Of a DNA stretch of 64,000 nucleotides, positions 25 to 44,900 are shown in pieces. Location of the stretch: assembly GCA_023245195.1 (NCBI GenBank), contig JAHFKU010000001.1, positions 27,662 through 91,661 of the forward strand, read 5' to 3'. Every line of letters begins with the position of its first letter. The stretch's first letter is position 1. This DNA is from Candidatus Staskawiczbacteria bacterium (GTDB taxonomy: Bacteria > Patescibacteriota > Minisyncoccia > Minisyncoccales > Staskawiczbacteraceae). The position numbers were made by a program, and so were the translations under genes. The notes under the pieces are model-generated. The model was not told where the DNA came from. It ran no database searches and worked only from the letters and a program-made list of their open reading frames with translations.

Positions 25-489
25 TTGATAAAATCTCCGGTAAGTTTTTGCGTAGCGGCTAAAGAAAATAATCAAATAATAGGTTTTGTGGCGGGGGTTT
101 CTAATATGAACGCCTTTTACAAATATTTTCTTACGCACTATTTTTTTCAGTCGTTTCTTATATTACTGCCCAAAATATTTTCTTCGTTTAAAAAAATGCT
201 GGAAACGTTATTATATCCAACAAAAGAACAATCTTTGCCTCCTGCGGAGCTCTTAGTTATCGCTATAAAAAAAGAATTCCAAGGTCAGGGGTTGGGTAAA
301 TCCTTATTGAATGAATTTTTAGTCCAAATGCAAAAAAGAAATATTACTATTTTTAAAGTGGTGGTCGGCGAAGATTTAACTAATGCAATTAAATTTTACG
401 AAAAAAATAATTTTACATTTATAAAAAATATTAACATTCATGGCAGTGCCTCCTCAAGAGTTTACTGCTATGAAGCAATGCAATCATGA
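25..489 (+). CDS. GNAT-family N-acetyltransferase (TTG start)
   Basis: 154-aa ORF with acetyl-CoA binding motif QGQGLGKSLL; fold-level call only. Confidence 0.5.
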   Translation: MIKSPVSFCVAAKENNQIIGFVAGVSNMNAFYKYFLTHYFFQSFLILLPKIFSSFKKMLETLLYPTKEQSLPPAELLVIAIKKEFQGQGLGKSLLNEFLVQMQKRNITIFKVVVGEDLTNAIKFYEKNNFTFIKNINIHGSASSRVYCYEAMQS

Positions 490-1418
490 GCATTATTTTT
501 TATTTTTTAGTGCCCCTTTTTATAGGTATCGTTGCAACATTTCTTCTCATGAAATTTTCCCAAAAAACTAATTTTTTGGTTGACGTATCAGAGGGCGATG
601 CACTAAAAATCCACACAAAAAACATCTCGCTTTTGGGCGGGTCGGCCATGGTGTTTACCTGGCTGGTTGGAACTGTCTTATTGTGGCGTCCGGGTTTTCA
701 TTTGTATGTTATTGCAATTACCGTAGGAATTTTGATGGCATTTTTTCTTGGTTTTTACGATGACTTAAAATGGAAGCATGTTTCTAGGATAAAACCGATG
801 CAAAAATTTATCCTTTTGCTTTTGTGTACTATCGGTTCGTCGGCAGTATTATTGTTTACCGGAATTTCTTTTCGTTTTTTGCCGTATTCCGCTATTTCTT
901 TACTTTTAGGTTTTGCCTATATTTTTGTTTGCATTAATGCTGTTAACTACCAAGATGGGATGGATGGATTGGCTGGAGGTTTGGCGGCCATTTCATTTTT
1001 AGGGTTTAGTTTGTCGGGTATGGCTGCTTACAATGGTTTTACAACGATGATTTCCATTATTGCTCTTGGCGCAGTTACGGCACTTTTATGTTTCAATTTT
1101 CCGCCGGCGAAAATCTTTATGGGGGATTCGGGGGCCTATTTTTTAGGATTTATTTTAGCGGTTTTGGCAATGTTACTTTCAAAACCGTATAATATTTACA
1201 GTGTTTTGGGCCCAATATTTATTATTGGCTTGCCGATTTTTGACGGAGTATACACCAATATCAGAAGAGTGCTGACCGGCAAATCCATCTTTTTGGGCGA
1301 CCGAAGCCACTTTTACGATAAACTGTTACAAAAAGGTTTTTCTACGAAAAAAACTTTAGCCATCTGTTATGGGTTGCAAATCGTGCTTGTTATTCTTGGA
1401 TTAGTGATTATTGCTTAG
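486..1418 (+). CDS. Glycosyltransferase family 4 (MraY/WecA-like polyprenyl-phosphate sugar-1-phosphate transferase)
   Basis: Polytopic membrane protein with motifs NAVNYQDGMDGLAGG and DSGAYFLG typical of the MraY/WecA family. Confidence 0.75.
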   Translation: MSIIFYFLVPLFIGIVATFLLMKFSQKTNFLVDVSEGDALKIHTKNISLLGGSAMVFTWLVGTVLLWRPGFHLYVIAITVGILMAFFLGFYDDLKWKHVSRIKPMQKFILLLLCTIGSSAVLLFTGISFRFLPYSAISLLLGFAYIFVCINAVNYQDGMDGLAGGLAAISFLGFSLSGMAAYNGFTTMISIIALGAVTALLCFNFPPAKIFMGDSGAYFLGFILAVLAMLLSKPYNIYSVLGPIFIIGLPIFDGVYTNIRRVLTGKSIFLGDRSHFYDKLLQKGFSTKKTLAICYGLQIVLVILGLVIIA

Positions 1419-1519
1419 ATCGAACATTGATTTATAGGCAATGCTATGGTATTATTTTACCTAGTCCTGATTGTGGCTCGTTGCCTCAATCTTGAATCAC
1501 AAACACAAGGAGATTTCAA

Positions 1520-2422
1520 ATGAAGCTGATTTCTGCGTCGTCTTTTTATCGCCTGCCGTTTGACGAAAGGGCGCATATTGAAGACGGTTCTTTCCTTAAC
1601 GCGCGGGCAAAGCTCTTTGGGGTCGCCGATGGCGTCTCCGAGGCGTACAGTCCTAGTAATCCGCCACTGATGTATGAAGATCTCTACGATTCTCGCTTTC
1701 ATAAGAAAGGCATCACCAGCGGTCAGATGATTGCGTCTTTGTTTGCTGGTAACGGTGCATCGCTACTTCCAACGTACGATGCCGAGGAGTTTCTACTCGG
1801 TATTAATAACCGCATTCTCGCCACCCACAGGCAAATGAGGAAAGATCCTATCAAGGGTGACGATGTTGGCGGTGCAAGCTTCTGCGTTTGCAAGATTTGT
1901 GACAAGTTCATCACGCTGATCTTCGGCGGTGATTGTTTCGCTCTCGTTAAGACAGAAGAGGGATACCAGTTCTTCTCTGGGTTTGACGAAGCGGCCTTCA
2001 AAGTAGAGAAGGAGGATAACGAGGCCTACACCCGATATCTTCAAAAAGCAGAAGGCAATAGGGGACTGGCATGGGATCTATATTGGCCCGAATATAGAGC
2101 CAAGCGTCTTCGTATTTCCAACAAGAATCTGGGCAAGGGTGGATCCGCCACACTCAATGGTGATCCGGCTCTAAAAGAATGCTGGTCGGTCAGGCAGATT
2201 AGCCTGTCGTTAAATCCTCGGTTCGTACTGCTGGGTACTGACGGACTTCTACCATCACACAAAACTGATCCCGCAAACAAGGGACTGGCCGAAGAACTAG
2301 GACACCTGTATTCCTTAAGCGGATTATCAGGCGTCCTAAAATGGCGAGATGAAACCGAGCAGTCACTCGCTCACCTCACGGGCTGGCCCGAAGCTTCCGC
2401 GATTGAAATAAAATTCAGTTGA
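1520..2422 (+). CDS. PPM/PP2C-like phosphatase-domain protein on a GC-rich foreign island
   Basis: Motifs FGVADGVSEAY, GGASFCV, FGGDCFAL and LLGTDGL resemble PP2C motifs 1, 4, 5 and 8. GC is ~50% against a ~37% background, with CTG/GGC/GCG-rich codons. A strong SD (ACAAGGAGATTTCAAATG) sits at 1505-1519. Confidence 0.4.
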   Translation: MKLISASSFYRLPFDERAHIEDGSFLNARAKLFGVADGVSEAYSPSNPPLMYEDLYDSRFHKKGITSGQMIASLFAGNGASLLPTYDAEEFLLGINNRILATHRQMRKDPIKGDDVGGASFCVCKICDKFITLIFGGDCFALVKTEEGYQFFSGFDEAAFKVEKEDNEAYTRYLQKAEGNRGLAWDLYWPEYRAKRLRISNKNLGKGGSATLNGDPALKECWSVRQISLSLNPRFVLLGTDGLLPSHKTDPANKGLAEELGHLYSLSGLSGVLKWRDETEQSLAHLTGWPEASAIEIKFS

Positions 2423-2615
2423 AATTTCACCATACCGCAACCTGTCAAGGAAGCGGTTTTTTTATTTGATTTAAGTTATAAATCTGATAGTATTTAGGTA
2501 ATATGCAAAGCATATATTTTATCACTCGGTCGGCATCCAAAAATGCTCGCGCAAAAATTAAAACGAATTTTAATTTTTGCGCTTACAATTTCGTCTGCCT
2601 CCCTCCTTCATAAAT

Positions 2616-3755
2616 ATGAACATCCCCCTATTTAAAATTTACTGGGACCAAGATGATATTACTGCCGTAAATAAGGCCATAAAATCTGGCTGGGGCTGGG
2701 CGATTGGGCCCCAAGTGGAAAAATTTGAAGAAAAATTGGCAACATATGTCGGCACAAAGTATGCTATTACGTTTAACTCTGGCACATCAGCTCTTTATGC
2801 GCTTTTATTGGCTTGCGGGATAAAAGAAGGGGATGAGGTTATTGTGCCATCATTTACGTTTATTGCCACGGCCAATGTGTGCCTTATGGTAGGCGCTGTG
2901 CCGGTGTTTGCTGAAGTAGAAAATCAAACGTACGGCTTGGATCCTAAAGATGTAGAAAGGAAAATAACCAAAAAAACCAAGGCCATCATGCCGGTTCATT
3001 ACGCCGGGCTGGGTTGCAATATTAATGAAATTAAAAAAATCGCTGATGCGCATAATATCTTGTTACTGGAAGACGCAGCAGAATCATTAGGCGCTAAAAT
3101 TGGCAATAAAAAAGTGGGAACGTTTGGATTTGCTTCCATGGTAAGTTTTTGCAGCAATAAAGTGATAACGACCGGAGAAGGCGGGGCGATCGTCACCAAT
3201 TCAAAAGATCTTTATGAAAAATTAAAATTATTGCGGTCGCACGGACGGGCGGAAACTACAAATTATTTTTCTTCATCAGAATACATGGACTATGTAGAGC
3301 TTGGTTATAATTTCAGGATGTCAAACATTACGGCTTCTTTAGCAATTAGCCAGCTTAAAAAAATAGAAAAAATTATCGGCCTGCGGCGCGCCAATGGCGC
3401 TTATCTTTCTAAAAAGCTAGAAGGTGTGCGTCAAATAACATTGCCTCATGCCCCAAAAGATTATGTCCATATTTACCAGATGTTTACCATATATATAGAA
3501 GGCGGAAAAAAAGTGAGGGATGCCTTAAAAAATTATTTGAATAAAAATGGCATTATGGCCAAAGTGTATTTTCATCCTGTCCACCTAACTACGTTTTACC
3601 GTAAAAAATATGGGTATAAAAAAGGATTTTTGCCAAAAACCGAACAGATATCAGATAGTGTATTAACCCTGCCCATGTATCCAGAACTTTCCAAAAAAGA
3701 AATGGATATTATAGCAAGCAATATTAATACTTTTTTCGGGCAATCACATGATTGA
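2616..3755 (+). CDS. DegT/DnrJ/EryC1/StrS-family sugar aminotransferase (PLP-dependent)
   Basis: Strong family-level similarity (NIPLFKIYWD..., GDEVIVPSFTF, internal lysine region). The ORF track starts at 2577, but the ATG at 2616 is preferred because 2548-2582 is a perfect 15-bp-stem hairpin. Confidence 0.85.
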   Translation: MNIPLFKIYWDQDDITAVNKAIKSGWGWAIGPQVEKFEEKLATYVGTKYAITFNSGTSALYALLLACGIKEGDEVIVPSFTFIATANVCLMVGAVPVFAEVENQTYGLDPKDVERKITKKTKAIMPVHYAGLGCNINEIKKIADAHNILLLEDAAESLGAKIGNKKVGTFGFASMVSFCSNKVITTGEGGAIVTNSKDLYEKLKLLRSHGRAETTNYFSSSEYMDYVELGYNFRMSNITASLAISQLKKIEKIIGLRRANGAYLSKKLEGVRQITLPHAPKDYVHIYQMFTIYIEGGKKVRDALKNYLNKNGIMAKVYFHPVHLTTFYRKKYGYKKGFLPKTEQISDSVLTLPMYPELSKKEMDIIASNINTFFGQSHD

Positions 3756-5595
3756 TTTATTTAAAAAAACGGTGGCAAAAAGAATGCTGTTTTTCATTGC
3801 AGCTGATGTTTTTTTTATTGCCCTTTCCATTTGGCTGGCTTTTTTATTCAGATTTGACGGTAAAATTCCAGCCCAGTACGATCCTTTTATTTTGAGGATG
3901 ATAGTACTAGCCATTATTTTTATCATACCGATTTTTTATTTTCACAAATTGTATTCTTTTTCCTGGTCATACGTGAGCGCCAGCGAACTGGTATCGTTAT
4001 TTAATGCTACCACTATTTCTTTTATATTTTTAAGCATTGCTATTTTTATATCCCACTATTTTCCCCATTTTACGAATTTCCCAAGATCAACTATTTTTAT
4101 AAGTTATATATTGGTCTTTATTTTTACCAGTGCGATACGTTTTTCAAAACGGGTTTATTCCCACAGGTTAGAATTTAAAAGAATTCAGGGACAGGAAAGA
4201 ACGCTCATTGTAGGAGCCGGCGACGCGGGCGAGCAAATTTTAAGAAGTATCCTGTCTTCAAAGATTCACGCTTATTTTCCTATTGGATTTGTCGATGATA
4301 ATCCCATGAAAAAGGGAGTTAAAATCCACGGGCTTAATGTATTTGGGAAAATTTCTGATATACCGGCTATTGTAACAAGTCAGCAAATTAAGCAGTTGAT
4401 TATTGCGCTTCCTTCGGCTAGTTCTACCGCCATAAGAAATGCGGTTGAGCTTGGCAAAAGTGCTGGAGTGCGCAAGATTAAAATTGCCCCGCCTCTCAAT
4501 GAAATTATCCGAGGCCAGGTATCTTTGAAAAATTTACGAGATGTTGATGTGGAAGATTTGCTGGGGCGAGACGCCGTGGTACTGGATAAAAAACAGATAG
4601 AACAATTTATAAAAAATAAGATAGTATTAATTACAGGAGCTGCCGGTTCTATCGGTTCTGAACTTTCGCGCCAGGTGGCAAAGTTTAAGCCATCACTGTT
4701 AGTTTTATTGGATCAAGACGAAACTGGCATGTTTCATATTGCTGGTGAAATAAAAAGTAAGTTTGATACCGTGATTACCCAATCTTTAGTGGCAGATATA
4801 ACCGACAAAGAGAAAATGCACGAAGTATTTGGTCGCTATCATCCGGAAATAGTATTTCATGCCGCTGCTTATAAGCATGTTCCATTAATGGAAGACCAGC
4901 CCGATGAAGCTGTAAAAAATAATATTTTTGGCACCAAGGTTTTAATAGAAGCGAGCCTTAGTGCTCGCGTGCAGAAGTTTATTTTTATTTCAACTGACAA
5001 GGCGGTGAACCCTACATCAGTTATGGGTGGCAGTAAGCGAATTAGCGAGATGCTTTGCCAGGCTTATAACCAAAAAAACAGCACTAAATTTATTTCTGTA
5101 CGCTTTGGCAATGTGCTAAATAGCAGGGGTAGTGTTATTCCTATTTTTAAAGAACAAATCAGAAGAGGGGGGCCGGTGGAAGTTACACATCCCGAAATGC
5201 AGCGATATTTCATGTTAACCAGCGAAGCGTGTTTGCTCGTTATGCAGGCAGGAGCCATGGGCCAAGGGGGCGAAGTGTTTGTGTTGGACATGGGCAAACC
5301 CGTTAAAATTTTGGACTTAGCGCGGGAAATGATACGGTTGTCAGGATTTGAACCCGACAAAGATATCGCCATTATTTTTACCGGAATCCGGCCCGGAGAA
5401 AAATTATTTGAAGAAATTTTGACTGCCCAAGAAGGAGTTGCTGCCACTCAGCACCAGAAAATTTTTATCGCCAAGATGGCCGATGTGCATTTTTCTAATA
5501 TCAATGCCACGTTAGACGATTTAAAGAACAGTATCTATAAAAACAATAAAGAGATGATTGCCAGCAGTATTAAACATATAATTCAAAGTTCTTAA
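3748..5595 (+). CDS. CapD/PglF/WbpM-like membrane-anchored nucleotide-sugar 4,6-dehydratase
   Basis: N-terminal TM segments followed by a Rossmann fold (LITGAAGSIGSEL) and an SDR catalytic region; 4-nt overlap with the upstream aminotransferase. Confidence 0.85.
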   Translation: MIDLFKKTVAKRMLFFIAADVFFIALSIWLAFLFRFDGKIPAQYDPFILRMIVLAIIFIIPIFYFHKLYSFSWSYVSASELVSLFNATTISFIFLSIAIFISHYFPHFTNFPRSTIFISYILVFIFTSAIRFSKRVYSHRLEFKRIQGQERTLIVGAGDAGEQILRSILSSKIHAYFPIGFVDDNPMKKGVKIHGLNVFGKISDIPAIVTSQQIKQLIIALPSASSTAIRNAVELGKSAGVRKIKIAPPLNEIIRGQVSLKNLRDVDVEDLLGRDAVVLDKKQIEQFIKNKIVLITGAAGSIGSELSRQVAKFKPSLLVLLDQDETGMFHIAGEIKSKFDTVITQSLVADITDKEKMHEVFGRYHPEIVFHAAAYKHVPLMEDQPDEAVKNNIFGTKVLIEASLSARVQKFIFISTDKAVNPTSVMGGSKRISEMLCQAYNQKNSTKFISVRFGNVLNSRGSVIPIFKEQIRRGGPVEVTHPEMQRYFMLTSEACLLVMQAGAMGQGGEVFVLDMGKPVKILDLAREMIRLSGFEPDKDIAIIFTGIRPGEKLFEEILTAQEGVAATQHQKIFIAKMADVHFSNINATLDDLKNSIYKNNKEMIASSIKHIIQSS

Positions 5596-5597
5596 CT

Positions 5598-5963
5598 ATG
5601 GATCATTTTAAACGCGTTGCCAATGATGCTCGAAAAAAAGTGCTCGAAATGGTACACAGGGGTCAAACCAGCCATATCGGGTCTAATTTTTCTTCCATGG
5701 ACATTCTGGCCGTTTTGTTTTCTAAATTGAATTTAGATAAAGATTTAAAGCCGGATCGCGATCGATTTGTGCTTTCCAAGGGTTGGGTAGCCGCCGCTTT
5801 GTATTACTTCTTAGCCGAAAAAGGCATTATTCCCAAAGAAGACTTAGAGGAATTTGGCAAAGAAGGATCCCCATATATCGGTTTGGCTGAGGTGATGGAA
5901 AAAGAAGTACCATGTGATTCTTGCCATGGGACAGGGATTGACGATAAACCGATTAAAAACTAA
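5598..5963 (+). CDS. Transketolase N-terminal subunit, fragment a (split gene), with non-transketolase tail ending CDSCHGTG
   Basis: HIGSNFSSMDILAVLF and DRDRFVLSKG align to the transketolase thiamine-diphosphate domain up to about GSPYIG. It then diverges into EVPCDSCHGTGIDDKPIKN. Confidence 0.7.
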   Translation: MDHFKRVANDARKKVLEMVHRGQTSHIGSNFSSMDILAVLFSKLNLDKDLKPDRDRFVLSKGWVAAALYYFLAEKGIIPKEDLEEFGKEGSPYIGLAEVMEKEVPCDSCHGTGIDDKPIKN

Positions 5964-5972
5964 AATTAATAT

Positions 5973-6521
5973 GTGGTTAAAACTTGCCAAACTTGTAATA
6001 AAGAATTTATACCAAAGGATGACAGGCCATCAAGACCTGCTAAGTTTTGTTCGCGTAGATGCATTCGAAACAGTACTCAGTTTAAAATAGGTCACAAACT
6101 TACGCCGCTTGGAAATAGGCGATGGGATAATCCGGCCACAAAGATGACATGGTTTAAAAAAGGTGTTCATTCATATCCTTTTGCTACCAATTTTAAGAAA
6201 GGATTTACGCCATGGAACGCGGGAAAAGATTTCGGAGGGACGGAATATATAGCAAAAAGAATAACTTGGTTGCAACAATATAAGAAATGGAAAAAAGAAA
6301 TTAAAATTAGGGATAATTTAAAGTGTATTCAATGTGGTAGTATTAAAAATCTTAATGTTGATCATTATCCGATTTCTTTAGCTGCATTAATCAAAAAGTT
6401 CAACATAAAAAAACCACAAGAAGCAAAAGAGTTCAAAGATTTTTGGGATAAAGGTAATGGCAGGACTCTTTGTCTTTCCTGTCATAAACAAACAGACACT
6501 TATGGAAAAAACTTCGTGTAA
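5973..6521 (+). CDS. Free-standing HNH endonuclease inserted within the transketolase gene
   Basis: N-terminal CxxC...CxxC zinc ribbon; C-terminal CIQCGS...VDHYP...N...CLSCH HNH motif. Confidence 0.75.
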   Translation: MVKTCQTCNKEFIPKDDRPSRPAKFCSRRCIRNSTQFKIGHKLTPLGNRRWDNPATKMTWFKKGVHSYPFATNFKKGFTPWNAGKDFGGTEYIAKRITWLQQYKKWKKEIKIRDNLKCIQCGSIKNLNVDHYPISLAALIKKFNIKKPQEAKEFKDFWDKGNGRTLCLSCHKQTDTYGKNFV

Positions 6522-7044
6522 AAAATGTAACGGTACCGGAAAGATAAAAGAGAATTTCATACCAGTAAATTCTGGGGCCATGGGCCACGGGTTACCCATT
6601 GCTTTAGGTATGGCTCTGGCGGCAAAACGTGGCAATGAAGCATGGAAAACCTACGTTTTAATGTCCGATGGAGAACTGGATTGCGGCACCACTTGGGAAT
6701 GCGCTTTGTTGGCGGGTCACCAGAAATTAAACAATCTAGCAGTAATTATAGATTACAATGGCTTCCAAGCCATGGGCACTAAAAAGGAAGTATTAGACGT
6801 GGAACCGCTGGCTGATAAGTGGCGCGCTTTCAATTGGGAGGTCGTAGAAATTGATGGGCACGATTACCAACAGATAAGCGATGCTTTAGATAAAATTACT
6901 ACTGCCCAAAAACCATTGGTGATTATCGCCAAAACCACTAAAGGGAAAGGAGTCTCTTTTTTTGAAGGAAAGCTAGAATGGCACTACAAAACCATCGACC
7001 AAGAGCATTATCAAAAAGCCTTAGAAGAATTAACTAAAGATTAA
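6502..7044 (+). CDS. Transketolase N-terminal subunit, fragment b (split gene), with N-terminal CKKCNGTG
   Basis: GAMGHGLPIALGMALA, LMSDGELDCG and IIDYNG align to the second half of the transketolase thiamine-diphosphate domain. The track start is 6457; the internal ATG at 6502 is more likely and overlaps the HNH gene by 20 nt. Confidence 0.7.
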   Translation: MEKTSCKKCNGTGKIKENFIPVNSGAMGHGLPIALGMALAAKRGNEAWKTYVLMSDGELDCGTTWECALLAGHQKLNNLAVIIDYNGFQAMGTKKEVLDVEPLADKWRAFNWEVVEIDGHDYQQISDALDKITTAQKPLVIIAKTTKGKGVSFFEGKLEWHYKTIDQEHYQKALEELTKD

Positions 7045-7050
7045 CATCAT

Positions 7051-7614
7051 ATGATGGATGATAAGCAATCATCAATCCCTGGCTTTACCAAGGGATTGCC
7101 AAATGAGATACAAAAAGAAACAACGGCCCGCAACGCCCGCGGCGTTTTTATGGAAACTCTGGAAGAATTAGTTCAAAAAGATCCGCGCATTATATTAGTG
7201 GTGGGAGACGTCGGTTTTTCCTACATGCAGGAATTTCAAAAAAAATACCCAAATCAATACATCAACACCGGCGTCATGGAACAATCTTTTATGGGGATCG
7301 CAGCGGGACTAGCCCAAAGTGGATGGAAACCGTATGTGTATTCTATGGTTCCGTTTGTCATTATGCGAAACTACGAACAGCTACGAAACGATGTCTGTTA
7401 CGCCAATGCTAATGTGAAACTGATCGGCGCGGTTGGCAATGTGCACTATCGCTTTCAGGGCATGAGCCACAACTTACTGGGAACAGAAAACGAAGAAGAC
7501 TTATTAAAGAATCTTCCCAATATCCAGCGTTTTTATCCCAAAGATACCCAGGAAGTTAGAAAGATTGTGCTGGAAACATATCGCGATAGCAAACCGACCT
7601 ATATTAGGCTATGA
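7051..7614 (+). CDS. Transketolase C-terminal subunit, pyrimidine-binding domain only (lacks the C-terminal domain)
   Basis: MEQSFMGIAAGLAQSG, MRNYEQLRND and KLIGA match the transketolase Pyr domain. The ORF ends at PTYIRL, ~120 aa shorter than canonical C-subunits. Confidence 0.65.
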   Translation: MMDDKQSSIPGFTKGLPNEIQKETTARNARGVFMETLEELVQKDPRIILVVGDVGFSYMQEFQKKYPNQYINTGVMEQSFMGIAAGLAQSGWKPYVYSMVPFVIMRNYEQLRNDVCYANANVKLIGAVGNVHYRFQGMSHNLLGTENEEDLLKNLPNIQRFYPKDTQEVRKIVLETYRDSKPTYIRL

Positions 7615-10379: not shown

Positions 10380-10453
10380 CCATTAACATTTGACCATTGA
10401 CAGGCGACGGTGACGTTGTCAATTGTTAATTGTCAAATGTCAATTGTTGCATT

Positions 10454-10801
10454 ATGCAAATTATTATTAAGACTAAAAATATCGAGCTTACGCCTTCGCT
10501 CGAAAATTTTATTAATGGTAAAATCGGCAAATTAGGAAAGTTTTTATTTGATGGCGCCGAATTGTTTGTTGAAATAGAACGGGAAACTTCGCACCATAAA
10601 AAAGGAGAGGTATTTTTTGCCGAGGCTATTGTTTCTTTGCCTGGTAAAAAATTAATATCCCAAGCCAAGGGCGACGACTTGGGCAAAGCTATTACCGAAG
10701 TTAAAGAAGAATTGGAAATAGAAATTAAAAAGTATAAACTCAAGAAAATTGAATTACCCAGGCGCAAAGCCAAAAAATCCCAGAACGAAGAAATTTTTTG
10801 A
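10454..10801 (+). CDS. hpf: Ribosome hibernation promoting factor / RaiA family
   Basis: MQIIIKTKNIELTPSLENFI...VEIERE...HKKGEVFFAEA is typical of HPF/YfiA. The track begins at a TTG at 10430. Confidence 0.8.
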   Translation: MQIIIKTKNIELTPSLENFINGKIGKLGKFLFDGAELFVEIERETSHHKKGEVFFAEAIVSLPGKKLISQAKGDDLGKAITEVKEELEIEIKKYKLKKIELPRRKAKKSQNEEIF

Positions 10802-10875: not shown

Positions 10876-11112
10876 ATGATCAAGAAAGTGAAGATGATTC
10901 AGATCGTCCAGGAAGCGTCGTCTTTTTTCATGCCGATGCTTTGTGCTTTGCTCTTTGGTTTTGGAACTTTTGTCATGACCATCACTTTGATTGACCAGAA
11001 AAGTTTAGGTACGGGACTTGTCATTTTTCTATGCGTTTTCGGGATTTTCTTGATCTTTTTTAGCATGGAAATGTTCATTCGTAGTTTAACCTGTGGTGTT
11101 GAGTGTGATTAA
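10876..11112 (+). CDS. Small two-TM membrane protein, hypothetical
   Basis: 78 aa and hydrophobic; preceded by a strong SD (ACAAGGAGGTTTCGATG) that is atypical for this genome; mildly GC-enriched. Confidence 0.35.
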   Translation: MIKKVKMIQIVQEASSFFMPMLCALLFGFGTFVMTITLIDQKSLGTGLVIFLCVFGIFLIFFSMEMFIRSLTCGVECD

Positions 11113-22598: not shown

Positions 22599-23078
22599 TT
22601 ACAATAGAAAAGCAGGGGGTTCTTTCAGTAGCGCCAGATTTGGCAGGGCGACTGCGCGCTCCTTTTTTCTGCAAAAGAGCATGTCCCAGGGTTTTGCGCC
22701 GACAGGATAGAAACCGAAGACCTGGAAGTTCTCGGTTCGCTCCACGGCTTGGTGAGCTACACCTGCCGGAATGAGAATTGCATCGCCCTGGCCGACTTCC
22801 ACGAGTGTGCCAAGGCGATGACCACCCAGTCGCAGAGTAGCAAAGCCCCGATAAACGACCAGCGCTTCATGTGTGGTTGAATGATAATGCGGTCTCTTGT
22901 AGACCTTCCATAGCCATTCAAGATTCCAGCCCGTTTCCAGGCCGCGCCTCTTAAGATCAGCCATGGCTTCGTCGGCTTTCATGTTGCCGAGATTTACCAT
23001 CTTTTTAGTCAAAATAGTCAAAAAACGGGAATTGGGAATGAAGCCATCATCTTTGAAACCGATGCTTAATCTTTTCAT
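22599..23078 (-). CDS. Cupin-domain protein on a GC-rich island
   Basis: HYHSTTHEALVV...G...IPAGVAHQ cupin motifs; GC ~55% over 22560-23100; strong terminator downstream. Confidence 0.6.
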   Translation of the reverse strand: MKRLSIGFKDDGFIPNSRFLTILTKKMVNLGNMKADEAMADLKRRGLETGWNLEWLWKVYKRPHYHSTTHEALVVYRGFATLRLGGHRLGTLVEVGQGDAILIPAGVAHQAVERTENFQVFGFYPVGAKPWDMLFCRKKERAVALPNLALLKEPPAFLL

Positions 23079-35952: not shown

Positions 35953-35984
35953 GAAATGCCGTGAAAGCATTTCGTGATTCAAAG
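35953..35984. repeat. MITE-A solo-end remnant immediately upstream of giant gene 1
   Basis: GAAATGCC joined directly to GCGAAAGCATTTCGTGATTCAAAG (the right-end sequence). Confidence 0.55.
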
Positions 35985-36008
35985 AGTGTATCATTTTTAA
36001 TTTACCAC

Positions 36009-39000
36009 ATGGCTTTTAAAAAAATTTCAACGTCAGTTATTTTTGCCGGAATATTTACTTGCACGGTGGTGTTTTTTTATTTGCCCGCAACGCCATTAAA
36101 AATCCAAGAAGCCAGAGCTTATGCCTGCTATGACGATGGAACCAATGACAGTAATTTTAACTGGACCGACACCAGTATTTGGGCTGGCTGCAATGGCAGT
36201 TATCCCGGCTCTCCCGCAAATGGAAATAGCGATACGGTAACTATTGGTAATACTAATCAAAGTGGTAACACATTTACGCTTAATACGAGTTCCATTACCA
36301 TAGCTAGTTTAATTATAGGTCCTATCAGCCACGGCGGTACACTAAAATTAAACGGAAATACACTTAATGTAAACGGTGCTGTAACCATAAAAACTGCTGC
36401 CAACTGCAGCTTCGCAAGTGATTTGCAGGTTGGAACAGGAACTTTAAATGCGACAGGTCTTATTACCATCGAAAATACTGCTGCCGATTCTAGTAATTGC
36501 GATGCAGATCTTGACGCAAGTACCGGAACCATTACCGCCAGCGGTGGCATTACCTTTTTATTTACCGCCGGAGCCAGTGCAGACTTAAGGCTCACCACCA
36601 CCGGAGCCACTACGATTAACCTTACCGGAGCTGTAACGGGCGCAGGGGATTTGTCTATTAATTCTGCGACCACGTTAGTTTCAACCGGTACCAGTAGTCT
36701 TGGACAAACTGCAACTTGGGGTAAATTATCTATCCCGAGTGGAACACTTACGATGGGGGCATTTGCTATATCGTTTGCTGGCACTACCAGTCTTACCGGC
36801 GGCACGCTCGCTGTCTCCAGCGCCACTGGAACCAAAACCTTCACCGGCGCCGTCACCTGCACCACCGGTAGTTTTGATTTGTCAGGGTTTGCTACCGTCA
36901 CCAGCTTTGCTGCCGGTATCACCGCCAACTGTACTACGTTTAATACGGGTACGGGCACTGCTGCTTTTTCAGCCGACCAATCTCTTGCTGGTTCGACCAA
37001 TATCACTTTCGGTGGTACTGTCACCCCCGCTTCAACTAAAACGATTACTAACAATAACACTGGAACGGTCACCGTTTCAGGAGCATTGACTCTGACGGGA
37101 AACTGGACGCAGGGCGCCAACTCAACCTTGAGCCTGGGCGCAACTCCGACGGGATCAGGCACTTTTGATACGAGTACGAATACGCCAAACACGGTAAAAT
37201 ATACCGCCACATCAACGCTGAAAGCTCCCAGTAGTTCTTACTACAATTTAACGATTACGGGAGGAACGGTAACAACGATAGCGGTAACGGTAACCAATAA
37301 TCTCGTAGTGAGCGGAGGCACTCTTTCTGGCACTTCTAATATTACCGTCAATGGCGGGGGAGTCACCGGTGATGGCACGATCACCATGAGCGCCCCCAGT
37401 GTCTTTTTAGTAGACGGCACTGGTAACTTCGGTGGTGCTACCGGCTGGACATTTTATGATTTAACCTTTGGAGATGGCAGTGGAGCTACGACAACCACGG
37501 CTACCGGAGCAGGAAGTATTACCGTCACCAACACTCAAACGGTTGCCGCTAATCAAACATTAAATGCTGGAAGTAAAACGTGGAATTTAACCGGTGTAGC
37601 AGTGAGCACTTCTTCTACCTATGTTCAAGGATGCGTCAATACTAATGCTAGTAATTCAGTCACTTGTACGATGAGTTCAAATATAACTGCGGGAAATTTA
37701 TTGGTGGTAAGCGGTTCAACTGCCGCAAATTTAACGGCTACTTTTTCCAGTTCTTCTGGAGTCAGTTGCACCTGGAATACGATTACCAGTGGCATAGCTA
37801 ATAGCGGTGTTCCTTTCAACTACGCTTTGGCTTATTGTCTTGTTCCTTCAACCGGAGCCGAAACAATCCAAATAAGTTGGAGCGGTAGCAGTTCTTTTAG
37901 CGATATTACGATTGCTGAATATAGTAATACGAGCGGCGGGTTTGCTCCCGGATTTGATAAATCGAGCAATGCGGTTGTTACGGGAGACTCCACTACCTGC
38001 AGTACCGGAACGACAGCTACGTTATCGCAGGCCAATGAATTGGTTATTGCCCTTTGCCATGGCTGGAACGGTAATGCTACCATTGGGACCGTATCGGGAT
38101 ATACCAAAAGAACCACTTCTGAAAGATCTAGTAACAATAATGGCTGGTATGACAAAGATGTAACCAGTACGACTGGTGTTTCGTGGTCCGCAACGATTGG
38201 GAGCGATAAAAGCATCGGCTTGATAGCTACGTTTATGAAATCCGGAATTACTGGAAGCCAATCATTAACCGTTAACGGCACTTTCACGGCCAGTACCTCA
38301 ACGTTCGCTTTTCAAAATGATATGGCTTTAACCATTCCCGCATTAACGTATTATAATTTAACCCTCTCTCCCACCATCACCGCCGCCCGCACCTACACCT
38401 TCGCCGGAGTCACCACCGTCAGCAACAACTTTGATATCAACCCCACTGCTTCTTCTGCCTTGGCTCTTACTACTAACCTTGGCGGAACGCTCACCGTCAC
38501 CGGTTCCACCACCATTGAGCGTACCACCTCTGCCACTTCCACCCTCGACACCCTTTCAGCTAGTAACTACGCTCTTTCATCAGGCTCTATTACGATTTCC
38601 ACCGGAGGAACCTTCACTTCCAATAATTCCGTTATCACCCTCACCGGCACCTCCGGCACGTTGTTTACCAAAACCGGAACTCTCACCGCCGTTGGCACCA
38701 CTTCTGAATGGGATGTCACTTCTGCAAGCGGAAGCCCCACCTTATTATCCGCCTCTACAACCCTCCACATCCTCAAGATCAACGCCGCCGCCACCGTCAT
38801 TAACCTCGGAGCGGCTTTCACCACCGACAATAATTCAGGCAACAAACTCTATGTAGCTTCCGGCGTCTTAAACCAGGAAAACCGCACCATCACCGCCGGA
38901 ACCAGCGGCACCTTGCAACTTGATTCCGGAGGCACCCTCTGCTTAGGGGGAACCACTTCTGCCACCACCGCCACCTGTGACTCGGGAGCCACCCAAACCA

Positions 39001-40364
39001 CTTCCTACACCCTTCCTTCATTTACCACTAACACGATTAATGCCTCTTCTACCGTTATCTATCTCTCAAATGCGACTACGACCGTAACCTCGTTAACCTA
39101 CGGCAACCTCAGCCTGATGCCAAAGATGACCACCGGAGTCGGAAGTCTTACTTACACCATGCCATCGAGCACCGTCAGCATCACCGGCAACTTTAACATC
39201 AAACCCACCGCTTCCAACGCGAGTCTGGCTCTCACCGTCAACTTGGCCACTTCCTCAAACACCGTCACCGGCACCACCACCATCCAACCCGATTCCACCA
39301 ATAGTCCCACGGCCAAGTTAGCTTCCACCTCTTCCAACTACAACCTAACCACCGGCAAGGTAGACATCGAATCCAACGGAACCTTGGATATTAATAATTC
39401 CACCCTCACCATTACCGGAACCTCGGGAACGTTATTCACGAGAGTGGGAACCTTCACCATCGGAGGTACCAGTACCACCACCTTTTCGGGCAATGGAGAC
39501 GCCACCTTAAATTCCGGATCGATAACATTCGATGCCATGACTAATTCTGGAACCGGAACCAAAACCCTCGGAGCCGCCATCACCACCGGGGGAGCGTTGA
39601 CGATTAGCGCGGGGACAATCGATGTTTCAGCCAGCGGCTGCTCTTCCGCTTCTTGTGCTGTTAATGTTGCGGGAAATTTTGCAAATTCCGGAACTTTTAC
39701 TGCCCGCACCGGTACAGTCACTTTTAATGGAACTAGTCAGACGATTTTTGGATCTACTTCTTTTTATAATTTTACCAAATCCGTCAGTTCTGCCGACACC
39801 TTAACTTTTACGGCCTCGTCTACCCAGACTATTGCCGGAACTCTTACGCTCCAGGGCGCTTCCGGTCAGCTGCTTTCATTGGTTTCAAGTTCGAGCCCGA
39901 CCCAATGGAATATTGATCCCCAAGGAACTCGGACCATCGGTTATCTAGATGTTAAAGATTCCAACAACACCAATGCTACGGCAATTACGACATCGGGGTT
40001 TACTATTACTGATTCCGGCCACAATACTAATTGGACATTTAGCACCTCGGGAACGACTCAACAATATGCCGGCGGACGAGTAATATATCTGCCAAAATCT
40101 GAAAAACCAAAAAATCCTATTTTGGTAAATCCTCAATATTTCTTCATTCGTTATTTGGGGCCCGGCGATAGGGGAGAGGATGTACTAATGCTTCAAACAT
40201 TACTTTTGCAACAAGGATTTTTTCCCGCCACTGTAATTATGAATGGTTATTTCGGATCGATAACCAAATTGTCAGTTAAAAAATTTCAGGCCAAATATGG
40301 TATTCGCCAAACGGGAAATGTCGGACCGCTCACCAAAAATGTTTTGAATACTTTAGAAAAATAG
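36009..40364 (+). CDS. Giant S/T/G-rich beta-helix surface protein 1 (~1450 aa) with C-terminal peptidoglycan-binding domain
   Basis: Signal anchor; N-terminal C..DDGTNDSNFNWTD..W..CNGSYPG..NGNSDTVTI module; T/S/G-rich beta-solenoid repeats; C-terminal PG_binding_1 (LMLQTLLLQQG...GYFGSITKLSVKKFQ). The track GTG at 35961 would translate a MITE remnant, so the ATG at 36009 is preferred. Confidence 0.7.
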   Translation: MAFKKISTSVIFAGIFTCTVVFFYLPATPLKIQEARAYACYDDGTNDSNFNWTDTSIWAGCNGSYPGSPANGNSDTVTIGNTNQSGNTFTLNTSSITIASLIIGPISHGGTLKLNGNTLNVNGAVTIKTAANCSFASDLQVGTGTLNATGLITIENTAADSSNCDADLDASTGTITASGGITFLFTAGASADLRLTTTGATTINLTGAVTGAGDLSINSATTLVSTGTSSLGQTATWGKLSIPSGTLTMGAFAISFAGTTSLTGGTLAVSSATGTKTFTGAVTCTTGSFDLSGFATVTSFAAGITANCTTFNTGTGTAAFSADQSLAGSTNITFGGTVTPASTKTITNNNTGTVTVSGALTLTGNWTQGANSTLSLGATPTGSGTFDTSTNTPNTVKYTATSTLKAPSSSYYNLTITGGTVTTIAVTVTNNLVVSGGTLSGTSNITVNGGGVTGDGTITMSAPSVFLVDGTGNFGGATGWTFYDLTFGDGSGATTTTATGAGSITVTNTQTVAANQTLNAGSKTWNLTGVAVSTSSTYVQGCVNTNASNSVTCTMSSNITAGNLLVVSGSTAANLTATFSSSSGVSCTWNTITSGIANSGVPFNYALAYCLVPSTGAETIQISWSGSSSFSDITIAEYSNTSGGFAPGFDKSSNAVVTGDSTTCSTGTTATLSQANELVIALCHGWNGNATIGTVSGYTKRTTSERSSNNNGWYDKDVTSTTGVSWSATIGSDKSIGLIATFMKSGITGSQSLTVNGTFTASTSTFAFQNDMALTIPALTYYNLTLSPTITAARTYTFAGVTTVSNNFDINPTASSALALTTNLGGTLTVTGSTTIERTTSATSTLDTLSASNYALSSGSITISTGGTFTSNNSVITLTGTSGTLFTKTGTLTAVGTTSEWDVTSASGSPTLLSASTTLHILKINAAATVINLGAAFTTDNNSGNKLYVASGVLNQENRTITAGTSGTLQLDSGGTLCLGGTTSATTATCDSGATQTTSYTLPSFTTNTINASSTVIYLSNATTTVTSLTYGNLSLMPKMTTGVGSLTYTMPSSTVSITGNFNIKPTASNASLALTVNLATSSNTVTGTTTIQPDSTNSPTAKLASTSSNYNLTTGKVDIESNGTLDINNSTLTITGTSGTLFTRVGTFTIGGTSTTTFSGNGDATLNSGSITFDAMTNSGTGTKTLGAAITTGGALTISAGTIDVSASGCSSASCAVNVAGNFANSGTFTARTGTVTFNGTSQTIFGSTSFYNFTKSVSSADTLTFTASSTQTIAGTLTLQGASGQLLSLVSSSSPTQWNIDPQGTRTIGYLDVKDSNNTNATAITTSGFTITDSGHNTNWTFSTSGTTQQYAGGRVIYLPKSEKPKNPILVNPQYFFIRYLGPGDRGEDVLMLQTLLLQQGFFPATVIMNGYFGSITKLSVKKFQAKYGIRQTGNVGPLTKNVLNTLEK

Positions 40365-40825: not shown

Positions 40826-41578
40826 ATGTCTTCAAAAAGACCACAATTAGTTAACGATGAATTTTATCATGTTGTCCTAAGAACTGTGGGTGATAGCGTT
40901 GTTTTCGAAAAAGAAGATGATTTTTATCGTGGCATTTTTTCTATTTATGAATTTAATAATGTCAACCCTGTAAATATATGGTTGAGAAGACAGCAACGTA
41001 AAAAGGAAAAGGCAATGGAAGATCTTGTAAAATCAGATTCTGTAAATTTGCGAGGTATGACCTCGCAATACTCTGAACAACTAGACAGAAGAGATAAGAT
41101 GGTGGAGATTTTATGTTTTTCTTTTATGCCGAATCACTTGCATCTTTTACTGCGCCAATTAAAAGATGATGGAATTACTCATTTTATGCAAAAAGTTGGT
41201 ACTGGCTATGCAAGATATTTTAATCAAAAATACAATCGCAAGGGGCATCTTTTCAGCCGTTTTCGAGCAGTTCATATTAAAACTGATGAACAGTTGAAAA
41301 ATACATTTACCTATATCCACACTAATTTAATCGCTTTAATCGAGCCAGGGTTTAAGGAAAAAGGATTAAAAAATCCCAAGAAGGTAATAGAATTTTTAGA
41401 AAATAGTAAACGCCACAGTTATCTTGATTATCTTAATAAAAAGAATTTTCCTTCGGTCACAGAAAGAGAATTTCTTCTAAACATATTAGGAGGTCCGGAT
41501 GGTTGCCGGGAAGAAGTAAATAATTGGGTAAATCATAAAAAAGAGTTGAAAGATTTTAGTAATGTTTTTTTAGAATAA
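40826..41578 (+). CDS. IS200/IS605-family HUH tyrosine transposase, REP-associated (RAYT-like)
   Basis: N-terminal YHVVLRT, HUH motif NHLHLLL, and catalytic-Tyr region TYIHTNLIALIEPG. Identical REP hairpins lie upstream, inside and downstream. Confidence 0.8.
   Translation: MSSKRPQLVNDEFYHVVLRTVGDSVVFEKEDDFYRGIFSIYEFNNVNPVNIWLRRQQRKKEKAMEDLVKSDSVNLRGMTSQYSEQLDRRDKMVEILCFSFMPNHLHLLLRQLKDDGITHFMQKVGTGYARYFNQKYNRKGHLFSRFRAVHIKTDEQLKNTFTYIHTNLIALIEPGFKEKGLKNPKKVIEFLENSKRHSYLDYLNKKNFPSVTEREFLLNILGGPDGCREEVNNWVNHKKELKDFSNVFLE
41048..41068. repeat. REP hairpin copy 2, inside the RAYT coding sequence
   Basis: TTGCGAGGTATGACCTCGCAA, translated in frame as NLRGMTSQY. Confidence 0.7.
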
Positions 41579-41635: not shown

Positions 41636-41886
41636 CTTCTGGGAAGTTATCCACAGTTTTACGGTGGTTTTTAGTATATTTCACATCATTAAAATATGGT
41701 AAAATGAACGAATAATTTTATATTTTTTCCAGCTTTTTTAAATGCCTCCCAAAAAACGCAAGCATAATATTATAACCATAAAAATAAAAGATAAAAATAC
41801 GGTTGCAAAAGCTCCGGCAAGTCTTTATGTGCGCATTGTTTCTCCTGCGCCGGCGCATAAATTATGGTTGCTTAATCTTTTTAGTT

Positions 41887-41957
41887 CTCAATTGCAAAAC
41901 TTCCGTTTTAAAAGTTACTTTTTTGGTCTTTTTCCCACAAAAGATTTTCGTGATTCA
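41887..41957. repeat. Internally deleted MITE-A remnant in the 5' leader of giant gene 2
   Basis: Matches the left 45 bp (…CCGTTTTAAAAGTTACTTTT…GGTCTTTTTC) and right end (AAAGATTTTCGTGATTCAG) of the 26831 copy. Confidence 0.6.
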
Positions 41958-41975
41958 GTGTTTTTTAAAGTTTTT

Positions 41976-44900
41976 GTGGCGGAATTTTGGCATCTTAAAA
42001 ATACCGCCCGCACCAATATTAAATCTATTGCCCTGGTTTCTTCCCTTTTTATTTTTTCTTTAACACTAACAACCGGCAATTCATTTATTTCAACCTACCA
42101 AATACATCAGCGGGATTACCGCACCATTAAAGATGTTGTCATCAAACAACTGTCGCCGGCGGTTATAAATCAGCCTACCCAATACACCGTTTTAGTCAAG
42201 CAAAGTTTAATTACCAAAGGCAAGAAGGGACAGTATTTGGTAAAGCTTCCAAAAGGCGCCACTAATATCAGTGTTAAAACCATCTTAGCCGATCAAGCCA
42301 AACAAATTCTTTCAAAAGAAACTCCAAAAATCACCAGCCTCTTTTCTAATCTTAAAAATCCTTTATCTTTTACAAAACCTTCCCATTCGGTTTCTGTCAA
42401 ACCCAAAAACGGCCAATTTCTTTTAGCTTCACTTGATGAGTCGGGCTTGCCAGAAACTCCACCAGCGCTAGAACCCGTAGCAGTTGAGTCTCTGCCAGTT
42501 GAACTTCCACCGGCCGCAGAACACGCAGCTGATCCCGTAAAAACCCAAGAAGAATCCGCCGTTTCTGAATCTGCGCCAATTCAGGAAGAGCCCGTAACTT
42601 CCGATGTTCGCGTTATTAAAACTAAGGATGCTACCTTTGTAGATGTTTCTTCTCAAGCGCCGCCAGCGCCAGAATCTGTTACAGAAAATAATAGTGAAGC
42701 TTCTGATGCGCCTGTTGTTCCCGATGCGCCCGCTGCAAATGATGCTAACCAAGATTCTACAAATCAAGATATTGCTGATTCTCCTGAAATTGTTTCCGGA
42801 GAAGTTCCCGCCTCCGATAAATCTTCGGCAGACAAGCCAGCAGACAAAGAAAATAAGGAAAATTCTGGCCAGAATAATCCTGACAACAAACTCAAAAAAG
42901 AAGAGTATATTAAAATTGATTATCAAATCCAGGCAGCCGTAATTACCGAACAAAAAACTAACCATGGGAAAAATGTTACCGTTTCCGCTCCCAATGAAGA
43001 TCCAGAACATCCTCTTACCAACGTGTTGGCTTTTACTGCGATTCCCGAAATTTTTAATATTGGCCAGGAAGATAACATTCAAATTAAGTGGACCAACAAT
43101 CAAGATCAGCCAATGCCCTTTACGGCCCACGATACTAATGGCAATGGAAAGCTTGATTACCTAGAATGGGTAGTTCCGCATTTATCCGAACAAGAATTTA
43201 ACATTATTTATATTTCTAAAGCTTTTTTGCTTGACCAGGATAAAAATGTTCTTGAAGATATTTATCCTATTGTTAAAGAACAGGATGGCACTTTTCAGGC
43301 TGTTACCCAAGGCCAGTATGTCCGTGTGACGTTCATAAAAAATCTTACCCAAAATAACGATATTACGTTGTATGCCCGGCCCACTGACCCAAACCAGCCA
43401 GTTACCATAAAAGTTTACTCTGCTTTGACTGATCAACTTATTACTACCTTTGATGTAATTGATCACGAAGATACCTATCGGGTTTTACTGACAAACTTAG
43501 AACAAGACACCGACGTCTTTGACCTAAAAATCACCAACGCTAACGCTGACATTGATTTTATTGTAGATCCGGGTAACGCTTGTGCAACTAATACTACTGG
43601 CACAGTCAATTGGAGTGCCGCGGGAACTTGGACAAGCTGTGGCGGTGGCTATCCTGGCCAAAGTGGAAACAGCGATACGGTCACTATAGCTAATGCAGCG
43701 GTTGCAGTAACCGGCGATGTTACGGTTACCGTCGATACGATTACGTTTACGGGTGGTAATGCATCCGCATCTATTAATATTAGCAACGGTATAACTATTA
43801 CAGCAACGGGTGCTGCTACGATCAATGCCCCGACCTCGGCTTCTATAACGAAAGAAATTGCAGTAGGTGGTGGTGCTTTGAGTGTTGGTGGACTCTTTAC
43901 CCTGGCTTCTGGTAGCTCTTCTACTAGAATTTCTAAACTTTCAGTTGGTACAGGAACTGCTACTCTTTCTGCGGGTTTGACCTGCACCGGATCAGCAGAA
44001 ACTTTTACCGTTGCCAGTGGCGGAACTTTTAATTTCACTGGTACCATGAGTGCTGGTTGTCTAACCGTTACTATAAATTCTGGATCCACTACTAATTTTA
44101 GTGGTACCGTTCAGCTTGATGGGGCTTATACTTTTGGAATTGTAACCGTTAATAGCGGAACAACAACTATGGGAGCTGTTGCTATTACGTTTGCCGGTAC
44201 CACTACTCTGGGTGGCGGCACCCTGGCGGTTTCCAGTGCCACGGGAACTAAAACATTCACCGGTGCCGTCACTTGCACCACCGGCAGTTTTGATTTATCT
44301 GCTGCCGCTGCCGTCACCAGCTTTGCCGCCGGTATCACCGCCAACTGTACTACGTTTAACACCGGATCAGGTACTGCAACGCTAAGTGCAACTCAATCCC
44401 TGGCTGGTTCTACTAATATTACTTTTGGTGGAGCTTTAACGGTTTCTGCGGGAACTACCACCAATAACAATAGTGGAACCGTTTTATCTACGGGAGTTTT
44501 AACTCTTACTGGTAACTGGGCTCAGGGAGCAAATTCCACTTTGTCTATGAATAGTACTAATAGTGGTTCGGGGACCCTAGATGCTTCTACTAACACTCCA
44601 AACACCGTAAAATATAATGCCACCGCTACCTTAAAAGCCCCAACAAGTTCTTATCATAATCTTACTATCACAGCCGGTACCGTTACTTCTGTGGCAGTTA
44701 CGATTAGCAACGACTTAGTTGTTAGCGGGGGCACGTTTTCTGGTACCGCTAGCATTACGGTAAATGGAGGAGATGTTACTGGTGATGGAACTATTACCAT
44801 GACCGGAGGAACGTTTTTACTAGACGGCACCGGAAATTTCGGAGGCGCTACTGCTTGGACATTTAATAATTTAACCTTTGGGGATGGTAGTGGAACTACG

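Follow-up and report, generated by a model that had tools for sequence, protein, structure and literature searches.

The DNA analyzed here is a 64,000-nucleotide stretch of a Candidatus Staskawiczbacteria contig (hereafter the window), and its subject is a single open reading frame, ORF X (1520..2422, plus strand, 300 amino acids (aa)), that lies within a cluster of cell-envelope glycan genes and appears to encode a divergent phosphatase of the PPM/PP2C type (PPM, metal-dependent protein phosphatase). To its left is a gene for a WecA-like phosphoglycosyl transferase (486..1418, plus strand; Pfam Glycos_transf_4, from the gene table of locus L001), and to its right are plus-strand genes for a DegT aminotransferase (2616-3755) and, after it, a CapD/PglF-like dehydratase (3748-5595). 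ORF X has a GC content of 0.498, with values of 0.55, 0.43 and 0.52 at the three codon positions (GC1, GC2 and GC3). The ORFs of the window average 0.39 (standard deviation 0.05) overall and 0.38 (standard deviation 0.07) at GC3, and the WecA-like and DegT genes stand at 0.38 and 0.39, respectively. When about 60 ORFs were scored by leave-one-out synonymous codon likelihood, ORF X ranked lowest in the window (z = -2.50). An initial annotation of this DNA had described high-GC codon usage against AT-richer neighbors, and both measures bear this out (GC 0.50 versus about 0.38; codon z = -2.5). A second GC-rich, codon-atypical single gene of the window encodes a cupin domain (22599-23078, minus strand; GC 0.50, GC3 0.53, codon z = -2.2) and occupies a 1.3-kb gap between plus-strand genes.

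ORF X also carries a strong Shine-Dalgarno (SD) sequence, AAGGAG (1507..1512, plus strand), positioned 7 nt before its ATG and with an anti-SD duplex energy of -8.3 kcal/mol. Roughly 90% of the ORFs in the window are without an SD; the anti-SD duplex scan found none for secA, fusA, rpsL, rpsG, DegT, CapD or MurB, in agreement with the earlier report of a strong SD on ORF X and none on secA, fusA and rpsL. About six other ORFs have SD sequences at or near -8 kcal/mol, among them those at 10876 and, on the minus strand, at 58604, 59523, 61989 and 62905, with a weaker one at 13743, and the codon usage of the other strong-SD ORFs of the 64 kb is often atypical too. Two further statements of the initial annotation were reproduced: the SD context of the gene at 10876 is close to that of ORF X (ACAAGGAGGTTTC, 12 of 13 positions identical), and GAGGAGG precedes the minus-strand ORF 61989-62372.

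The coding sequence forms part of a conserved unit of about 1.05 kb (1424-2470) that comprises a promoter, a ~60-nt leader containing a conserved hairpin, the SD, the ORF and a terminator. The closest copies, in loci L009, L010 and L025, are 72-79% identical in amino acids and about 75% in nucleotides. DNA similarity to these copies begins at the -35 box (~1424) and ends at the T-run of the terminator (~2470), and the flanks beyond are unrelated between the window copy and the other three. The limits first proposed for the island, 1440-2430, were roughly right, the unit as defined by homology being slightly wider. A promoter scan predicted a sigma-70-like promoter at 1427..1455 (plus strand; TTGATT, 17 nt, TATTAT, with a TG upstream of the -10 box). 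Its position and both hexamers are kept in the three closest copies (TTGACT-17-TATGGT/TAGTAT), and TTGAC(A/T/G)-17-TAnnAT is found upstream of every other copy examined, a conservation from which we infer promoter function. In the leader, a hairpin (1469..1491, plus strand; 9-bp stem GATTGTGGC/GCCTCAATC, loop TCGTT) that also occurs in the minimum free energy fold is followed by a conserved single-stranded block, CTTGAATCACAA (1491-1502, plus strand). An alignment of four sequences showed pairing in 97% of cells, with both sides changed in three of the nine pairs; pairing at slid control positions ranged from 19 to 72% of cells, and the observed score was reached in 17 of 500 shuffles. These data, from four sequences only, lend modest support to a hairpin maintained by compensatory changes. 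The leader matched no known RNA family, as a search of Rfam at gathering score gave no match in the whole window. At its other end the unit closes with a predicted intrinsic terminator (2434..2463, plus strand; ACCGC..GCGGT stem, inner CCT/AGG stem and T-run; -11.3 kcal/mol by RNAfold). A hairpin and T-run directly after the stop codon, and a TTGAC-type promoter of its own, were present in all 13 intact copies examined. The spacer of about 145 nt between the unit and DegT (2464..2615, plus strand) is not common to other copies of X. It carries a weak promoter-like element at 2466-2493 (TTGATT-16-TAGTAT) and, at 2549-2582, a 15-bp AT-rich palindrome without mismatches (GCGCAAAAATTAAAA cgaa TTTTAATTTTTGCGC), and it may restart DegT-CapD transcription past the X terminator.

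That the product is PP2C-like, as initially annotated, was borne out by its predicted fold and conserved catalytic motifs. The AlphaFold2 model has a mean predicted local distance difference test score (pLDDT) of 94.4 and a predicted template modeling score (pTM) of 0.92. In a Foldseek comparison with the PDB, every one of the top 50 matches was a PPM phosphatase, with a probability of 1.0 and E values as low as 2.6e-10; Stp1, PstP, PppA and tPphA were among them, at E values of 2.6e-10 to 1e-9; in a viral structure library, likewise, only PP2Cs matched. On the basis of this model we assign the PPM/PP2C fold to X with confidence. Links at the sequence level are provided by other members of the family: P0060, P0080, P0100 and P0160 exceed the gathering score of Pfam PP2C_2, a 74-sequence family profile matches a PP2C in the PDB (6ae9, E 5.5e-4) through the ED, GVxDGVS and GDC motifs and aligns with 2i44 through TDG, and hhalign joins the family profile, at a probability of 99.7%, to a PP2C_2-positive paralog in L024 with the same insert. 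Among 74 diverse members, E21, D22, D37, D138 and D241 are conserved in at least 90% and E291 is invariant. This conservation supports the assignment of the first five to PPM metal-ligand positions, and the active site looks intact; X would presumably be enzymatically active. In place of the usual flap, residues 157-222 form an insert of two helices, about 65 residues long, that carries an invariant N..N.G.GG.A.LNGD loop. Neither a signal peptide nor a transmembrane segment was seen in the sequence, and the protein is probably cytoplasmic.

A database search returned 29 close relatives of 280-314 aa, none with a Pfam domain, and an exhaustive profile search gave 494 representatives at 50% identity, all of them single-domain proteins of about 280-300 aa. 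The homologs are named only as 'Patescibacteria group bacterium' or 'Candidatus Parcubacteria bacterium', with one record just 'bacterium'. A profile scan of 185,579 species genomes found three loci, all in metagenome-assembled genomes (MAGs) of Patescibacteria. Searches of phages and plasmids by tblastn and a scan of IMG/VR found no relatives of X, and an origin from a phage or plasmid was rejected on these grounds. As far as can be seen, X is a new member of the PP2C superfamily that is invisible to Pfam and seemingly restricted to Patescibacteria.

The initial annotation had taken the composition and the SD to indicate recent horizontal acquisition from an SD-using, higher-GC donor outside the lineage, possibly a host, with the gene not yet ameliorated. 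The composition and codon usage of ORF X are indeed the most atypical in the window, its SD is atypical for the genome, and the GC island is sharply bounded at 1 kb. In addition, the unit is absent at the corresponding junction of a syntenic relative, L006, where the WecA-like gene (45% identical to that of the window) ends at 3706 and DegT starts at 3709, 2 nt apart; L006 has X in another slot. The search for a donor lineage, however, yielded no relative in phages, plasmids or viral contigs and none named outside Patescibacteria, with all three matches in the species genomes falling within that group. Nor are the nearest copies, at about 75% nucleotide identity, recent relatives, and the insertion is common to a strain at 99.1% identity.

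The signature itself also proved to be widespread in the family. Across 11 genomes with at least three neighboring genes, X exceeded its neighbors in GC3 by a mean of 0.125 (Wilcoxon p = 0.003; 10 of the 11 genomes) and in GC1+2 by 0.086 (p = 0.002). An SD was found at 12 of 14 X loci, compared with 7 of 137 neighbor genes (Fisher p = 2e-11). Identity of these copies to that of the window ranges from 30 to 55%, and the signature recurs in copies at only 30-48% identity in at least 10 other Patescibacteria. A GC island of 1 kb within AT-rich flanks was likewise seen for X in L010 and L025. Because the signature is family-wide and synonymous sites are long saturated at 30-55% identity, it cannot date or source the window copy. 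GC-rich coding with an SD is a family trait and does not prove recent import from a host or other donor outside the lineage, which we consider very improbable. GC content, codon usage and SD can be stable properties of a gene family and alone neither date an acquisition nor identify its source, a point of relevance when reduced symbiont genomes are screened for host-derived genes.

The GC excess may be maintained either by continual lateral circulation of the cassette among Patescibacteria out of a GC-richer pool or by selection on a special expression regime, namely a leadered, SD-dependent mRNA with stabilizing hairpins at both ends. The PP2C fold does not demand high GC, since in L024 (8001-9796) CapD and DegT enclose two PP2C-type paralogs set back to back, of which the X-type copy (GC 0.42, opposite strand) has an SD-like block and its own promoter, whereas the native-style paralog, of the same architecture as X, has a GC content of 0.27 and no SD and lies in the operon. 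Dual coding, with a conserved antisense ORF as the source of the high GC, was rejected, as open runs in alternative frames were short and inconsistent among 14 copies. In L010, another GC-rich single-gene island (2001-3000; 286 aa, GC 0.59, GC3 0.76, no Pfam match) adjoins the X cassette across an AT-rich spacer on a contig that is otherwise AT-rich.

An abrupt change in composition could also arise from a chimeric contig containing DNA of a GC-richer organism, and the initial annotation had called for misassembly to be checked. The change in composition is the only feature that speaks for a chimera. Both junctions recur with 100% identity in two independent assemblies of other runs and samples, L001 (SRR14366769) and L002 (ERZ27280176), the X-DegT junction is unchanged in the strain variant L026 (99.1% identity), and similar islands occur in relatives. 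An assembly artifact can be set aside with near certainty.

We next considered where X resides in other genomes, counting locus associations where at least 10 kb of context was available (10 genomes). X lies in or beside a single type of neighborhood in nine of these ten, in at least seven different slots. The order of that neighborhood is a glycan cluster (GT4, acetyltransferase, phosphoglycosyl transferase, DegT and CapD), followed by a peptidoglycan (PG)-binding protein, MurB, hpf and SecA. The arrangement WecA / X / DegT of the window, our reference copy, is replaced by epimerase / X / RmlD-like in L011-13 (X 44-46% identical to the window copy), WbqC / X / PIG-L in L019 (52%), DegT / 103 aa / X / E1-beta in L022 (32%), DegT / X / epimerase in L023 (37%) and CapD / X / PP2C_2 paralog / DegT in L024 (30%). 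In L006, L015 and L021 (44-48%), X is found between hpf and SecA, immediately downstream of the cluster, and the sole locus elsewhere is L003 (55%), where X follows a PAP2 gene. In some loci X is on the opposite strand. It is split in L020 (5932-6753; ORFs of 156 and 98 aa), probably as a result of decay, and L016 retains a 72-aa fragment (191-409) near a contig end. From its presence there in nine of ten genomes and in at least seven slots, we conclude that X belongs habitually to the glycan locus, though without a stable position, and is not a stray insertion there. The earlier description of an island that interrupts the glycan locus holds insofar as X does part the WecA-like gene from DegT; the implication of a stray insertion does not.

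The surroundings of X in the window have themselves changed. SecA is 70-74% identical to its counterparts in syntenic relatives (74% to L015, a named Patescibacteria MAG). DegT, by comparison, is an outlier, with 33-38% identity to the relatives' DegT proteins, which share 61-70% among themselves, and the product of hpf (10430-10801) is likewise an outlier (22-30% versus 37-52%). These values indicate that DegT and hpf were replaced inside otherwise conserved synteny and, because the window DegT is an outlier relative to its relatives, that the WecA/DegT junction was remodeled in the window genome.

Taken together, these observations appear to be best explained, with a probability of roughly 0.6, if X is an autonomous PP2C cassette that has long been a relocating, lineage-specific accessory of the envelope-glycan locus of Patescibacteria. 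Under this explanation, 1424-2470 would be a single-gene transcription unit for a metal-dependent PPM/PP2C-type phosphatase, expressed independently of the surrounding operon. Over evolutionary time X would change slot by relocation and/or exchange between Patescibacteria, and in the window genome it would have landed between the WecA-like gene and DegT. The phosphatase would act in a regulatory capacity, dephosphorylating serine or threonine residues of a protein of glycan or cell-wall assembly. The data show the fold, the conserved catalytic residues, the anatomy of the cassette, its tie to the locus, the family-wide composition and SD signature and the correctness of the assembly, whereas enzymatic activity, substrate, regulatory role and relocation mechanism are inferred.

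Several observations weigh against this explanation. The flanks of the unit contain no convincing target-site duplications, terminal inverted repeats, recombination scars or mobility genes. Glycan loci are general hot spots of gene gain, and the association of X with them could be inflated as a result. The GC excess is not explained by protein constraint, as the AT-rich L024 paralog exists. At the protein level, the window sequence has no match in Pfam or NCBIfam even at E = 10, nor in PHROGs, PADLOC or, by phmmer, PDB sequences, and the last metal ligand, judged by motif order, would be E291 in place of the canonical Asp. No gene for a Hanks kinase, FHA or STAS protein adjoins X in the locus tables or among the window ORFs scanned. 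Finally, distances among X copies do not track those of CapD, MurB and the PG-binding protein (rho about 0.2, compared with 0.65-0.83 for those genes mutually), which speaks for relocation or turnover, but in a test that is low in power, the host genomes being approximately equidistant and star-like.

This decoupling of X from host-gene distances is also among the points in favor of a different explanation, in which X spreads horizontally from one Patescibacteria genome to another, out of a GC-richer reservoir and at a pace that outruns its amelioration. Its GC excess everywhere would then stem from repeated transfer, and its association with the glycan locus would mark a preferred or permissive region for integration and not a function. 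Homology that stops at the cassette boundaries with unrelated flanks beyond, slots that vary inside conserved synteny, the decaying copies in L020 and L016, and the second GC-rich single-gene island beside X in L010 are all consistent with such traffic, and the GC3 of X partly tracks that of the host, as amelioration in progress would. Against this, the analysis revealed neither an integrase or transposase nor att-like repeats or target-site duplications. It also brought to light no genome rich in GC to which X would be native in composition, even the flanks in L009, L010 and L025 being AT-rich. Members of 30% identity in the same cluster, together with the AT-rich in-operon paralog there, point instead to ancient residence and a functional tie. 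We regard circulation from such a reservoir as possible but unlikely. Two AT-rich repeats were noted, neither of them convincing: an inverted pair (24 nt, 79%) with one arm over the start codon (1510-1533) and the other over the stop codon (2405-2428), and an 8-nt sequence, TTGATTTA, present at both ends. The window contains no RNA gene at the Rfam gathering score, and no tRNA target for integration at that threshold.

A possible footprint of the cassette, which would fit lateral traffic, lies at 10876..11112 (plus strand), where an SD-led ORF of 78 aa with two transmembrane segments and its own terminator occupies the hpf/SecA slot. This slot holds X in L006, L015 and L021 and is empty in L012. 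The SD and first ~15 codons of the ORF align with the 5' end of X at a score of 59.5 (gapped local alignment) that was reached by none of 2000 dinucleotide shuffles and by 1 of 1972 genomic windows; the aligned blocks are ACAAGGAG.TTTC, (A/G)TGAAG.TGATT and, in frame, GCGTCGTCTTTTT. Beyond these codons the ORF shows no similarity to X (the score was reached by 41 of 300 shuffles), and tblastn detected no X remnant in the slot. Homology extending through the leaders of X and 10876 was considered and rejected, as only the 13-nt SD block matches (28 of 1000 shuffles reached the score). The alignment is suggestive only, and the ORF may be the footprint of a former copy of the X cassette.

A broader possibility, which we consider doubtful, is that AT-rich Patescibacteria harbor a class of GC-rich, SD-led single-gene cassettes that move between slots and genomes without a recognizable recombinase. 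Candidates for this class would be X, the cupin gene at 22599-23078, the ORF at 61989-62372 and the 286-aa island of L010. If this were true, persistent 'foreign' composition and a canonical SD would be the sign of a distinct mode of expression (leadered, SD-dependent, stable mRNA), set apart from the SD-less initiation of the core genes, and X, with its leader hairpin, at least seven slots, decaying copies and possible footprint, would be the first traceable example. SD-led cassettes set against SD-less core genes offer a handle on translation initiation in these bacteria. The X family and a few other single genes of the window keep a GC-rich, SD-led, self-contained format that the core genes lack, and the X unit changes slot without visible recombination machinery.

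With respect to initiation, the motif ATTAGAAATT(C) is found directly 5' of SD-less starts at 25276, 56273 (minus strand), 58054 and 59846, a set that includes rpsG and fusA, and AAATTTCAAATT repeats upstream of the starts at 33975 and 35347. Either motif may serve as a promoter native to this genome or as a signal for initiation without an SD. Leaderless mRNAs as the reason for SD-less native genes found no support, as no clear peak of -10-like hexamers was observed 5-9 nt from starts. Among rpsL, rpsG and fusA there are four small SD-led minus-strand ORFs (58604-58870, 59523-59717, 61989-62372 and 62905-63102), of which 61989-62372 is atypical in codon usage (z = -2.1). None of the four had a match in Pfam, and some may be spurious antisense ORFs. 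Our search found no pertinent literature on SD use, PP2C, bacillosamine, or horizontal gene transfer in combination with codon usage in Patescibacteria.

As to function, the intact-looking PPM site, probable cytoplasmic location, independent transcription and constant neighborhood lead us to suggest that X may be a regulatory Ser/Thr phosphatase for envelope-glycan or cell-wall assembly, by analogy with Stp1, PstP and PhpP, a proposal we hold tentatively, at somewhat less than even odds. Alternatively, X could be a pathway enzyme that hydrolyzes a sugar phosphate or a lipid-linked (polyprenyl-diphosphate) glycan intermediate. Its persistent proximity to genes for DegT, CapD and the phosphoglycosyl transferase would suit this role, as would its position after a PAP2 lipid-phosphate phosphatase gene in L003, the failure to find a partner kinase, and the insert, whose invariant N201, N213 and G214 near the active-site motifs could form a different substrate pocket. 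However, a soluble, cytoplasmic, separately transcribed protein that is often encoded on the opposite strand is more regulator-like. The PPM enzymes characterized so far act on phosphoproteins, and to our knowledge the bacillosamine-type DegT/CapD/acetyltransferase route requires no phosphatase step. We judge a pathway enzyme to be improbable.

X might also be a defense component or a host-directed effector riding in a variable surface-antigen locus. Its autonomous expression, like that of a moron, could be read in this way, as could its atypical composition, its changing position and a presence/absence pattern with decay among relatives, but there was no PADLOC or PHROG match, no secretion signal was seen, no partner genes recur across loci, and X has been kept over deep divergence in one housekeeping-type neighborhood, all of which renders such a role highly improbable. 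The family constitutes a branch of PP2C, restricted to Patescibacteria as far as can be seen, that was missed by curated models. Its consistent tie to an envelope-glycan and cell-wall neighborhood makes it a concrete candidate for the regulation of surface-glycan synthesis in bacteria that attach to hosts by way of their surfaces.

Elsewhere in the window, the glycan cluster continues past CapD with a 121-aa Transketolase_N fragment (5598-5963), followed by a Cys-rich, HNH-like ORF of 182 aa without a Pfam match (5973-6521) and two more ORFs (6457-7044 and 7051-7614). It looks as if a transketolase-like gene of the cluster has been split around an endonuclease-like insertion. A gene with an IS200-like Y1 transposase domain (40826-41578; Pfam Y1_Tnp, E 2.5e-7) is located 38 kb from X, between two giant ORFs, one of 1467 aa (35961-40364) that has a PG_binding_1 domain at its C terminus and one of 4529 aa (41742-55331). 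GC content at the second codon position is unusually high in both (0.56-0.58), and they probably encode surface proteins.

Comparison with known systems places X among several partial counterparts. As a genetic element it resembles phage morons and other single-gene cassettes with autonomous expression, in that it is a single ORF with its own promoter and terminator, inserted in a conserved cluster and of deviant composition. Unlike morons, it is not in a prophage, has no phage or plasmid homologs that we could find, and has stayed in one chromosomal neighborhood over deep divergence. Stp1, PstP and PhpP are regulators of cell-wall synthesis, and in the eukaryotic-like Ser/Thr kinase and phosphatase (eSTK/eSTP) modules Stk1/Stp1, PknB/PstP and StkP/PhpP the genes for kinase and phosphatase form a pair, whereas no Pkinase gene accompanies X in the neighbor tables or among the scanned window ORFs. 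Capsule loci provide another parallel, as CpsB (PHP-type) and Wzb (a low-molecular-weight protein tyrosine phosphatase) are, like X, phosphatases encoded within a surface-polysaccharide locus; the clusters that contain X include a PHP-domain gene in L023 and a Wzz gene in L024. Here the likeness would be one of function only, as X, a presumed PPM Ser/Thr phosphatase, differs from these PHP and low-molecular-weight Tyr phosphatases in fold and chemistry, and no bacterial tyrosine kinase (BY-kinase) partner was identified.

The bacterial PPMs Stp1 (Staphylococcus aureus, 5f1m), PstP (Mycobacterium tuberculosis, 1txo), PppA (6jkv), tPphA (2j86) and PrpC have the same fold as X (target-normalized template modeling score about 0.64) and share with it the motif order and the acidic ligands of ED, DG, GD[S/C] and TDG. 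X differs from them in showing only 11-16% identity, in the replaced flap, in a C-terminal Glu for Asp, and in having neither an adjoining Hanks kinase nor a membrane anchor. Although X and its 29 close relatives fall under every Pfam threshold, unlike PP2C_2 proper, the best sequence-level link of X is to the PP2C_2 (PF13672) or PTC7-PBCP type, exemplified by 6ae9 ('Probable protein phosphatase 2C 1'), and the motif variants GV(A/L)DGVS and GDC are common to the X family and PP2C_2.

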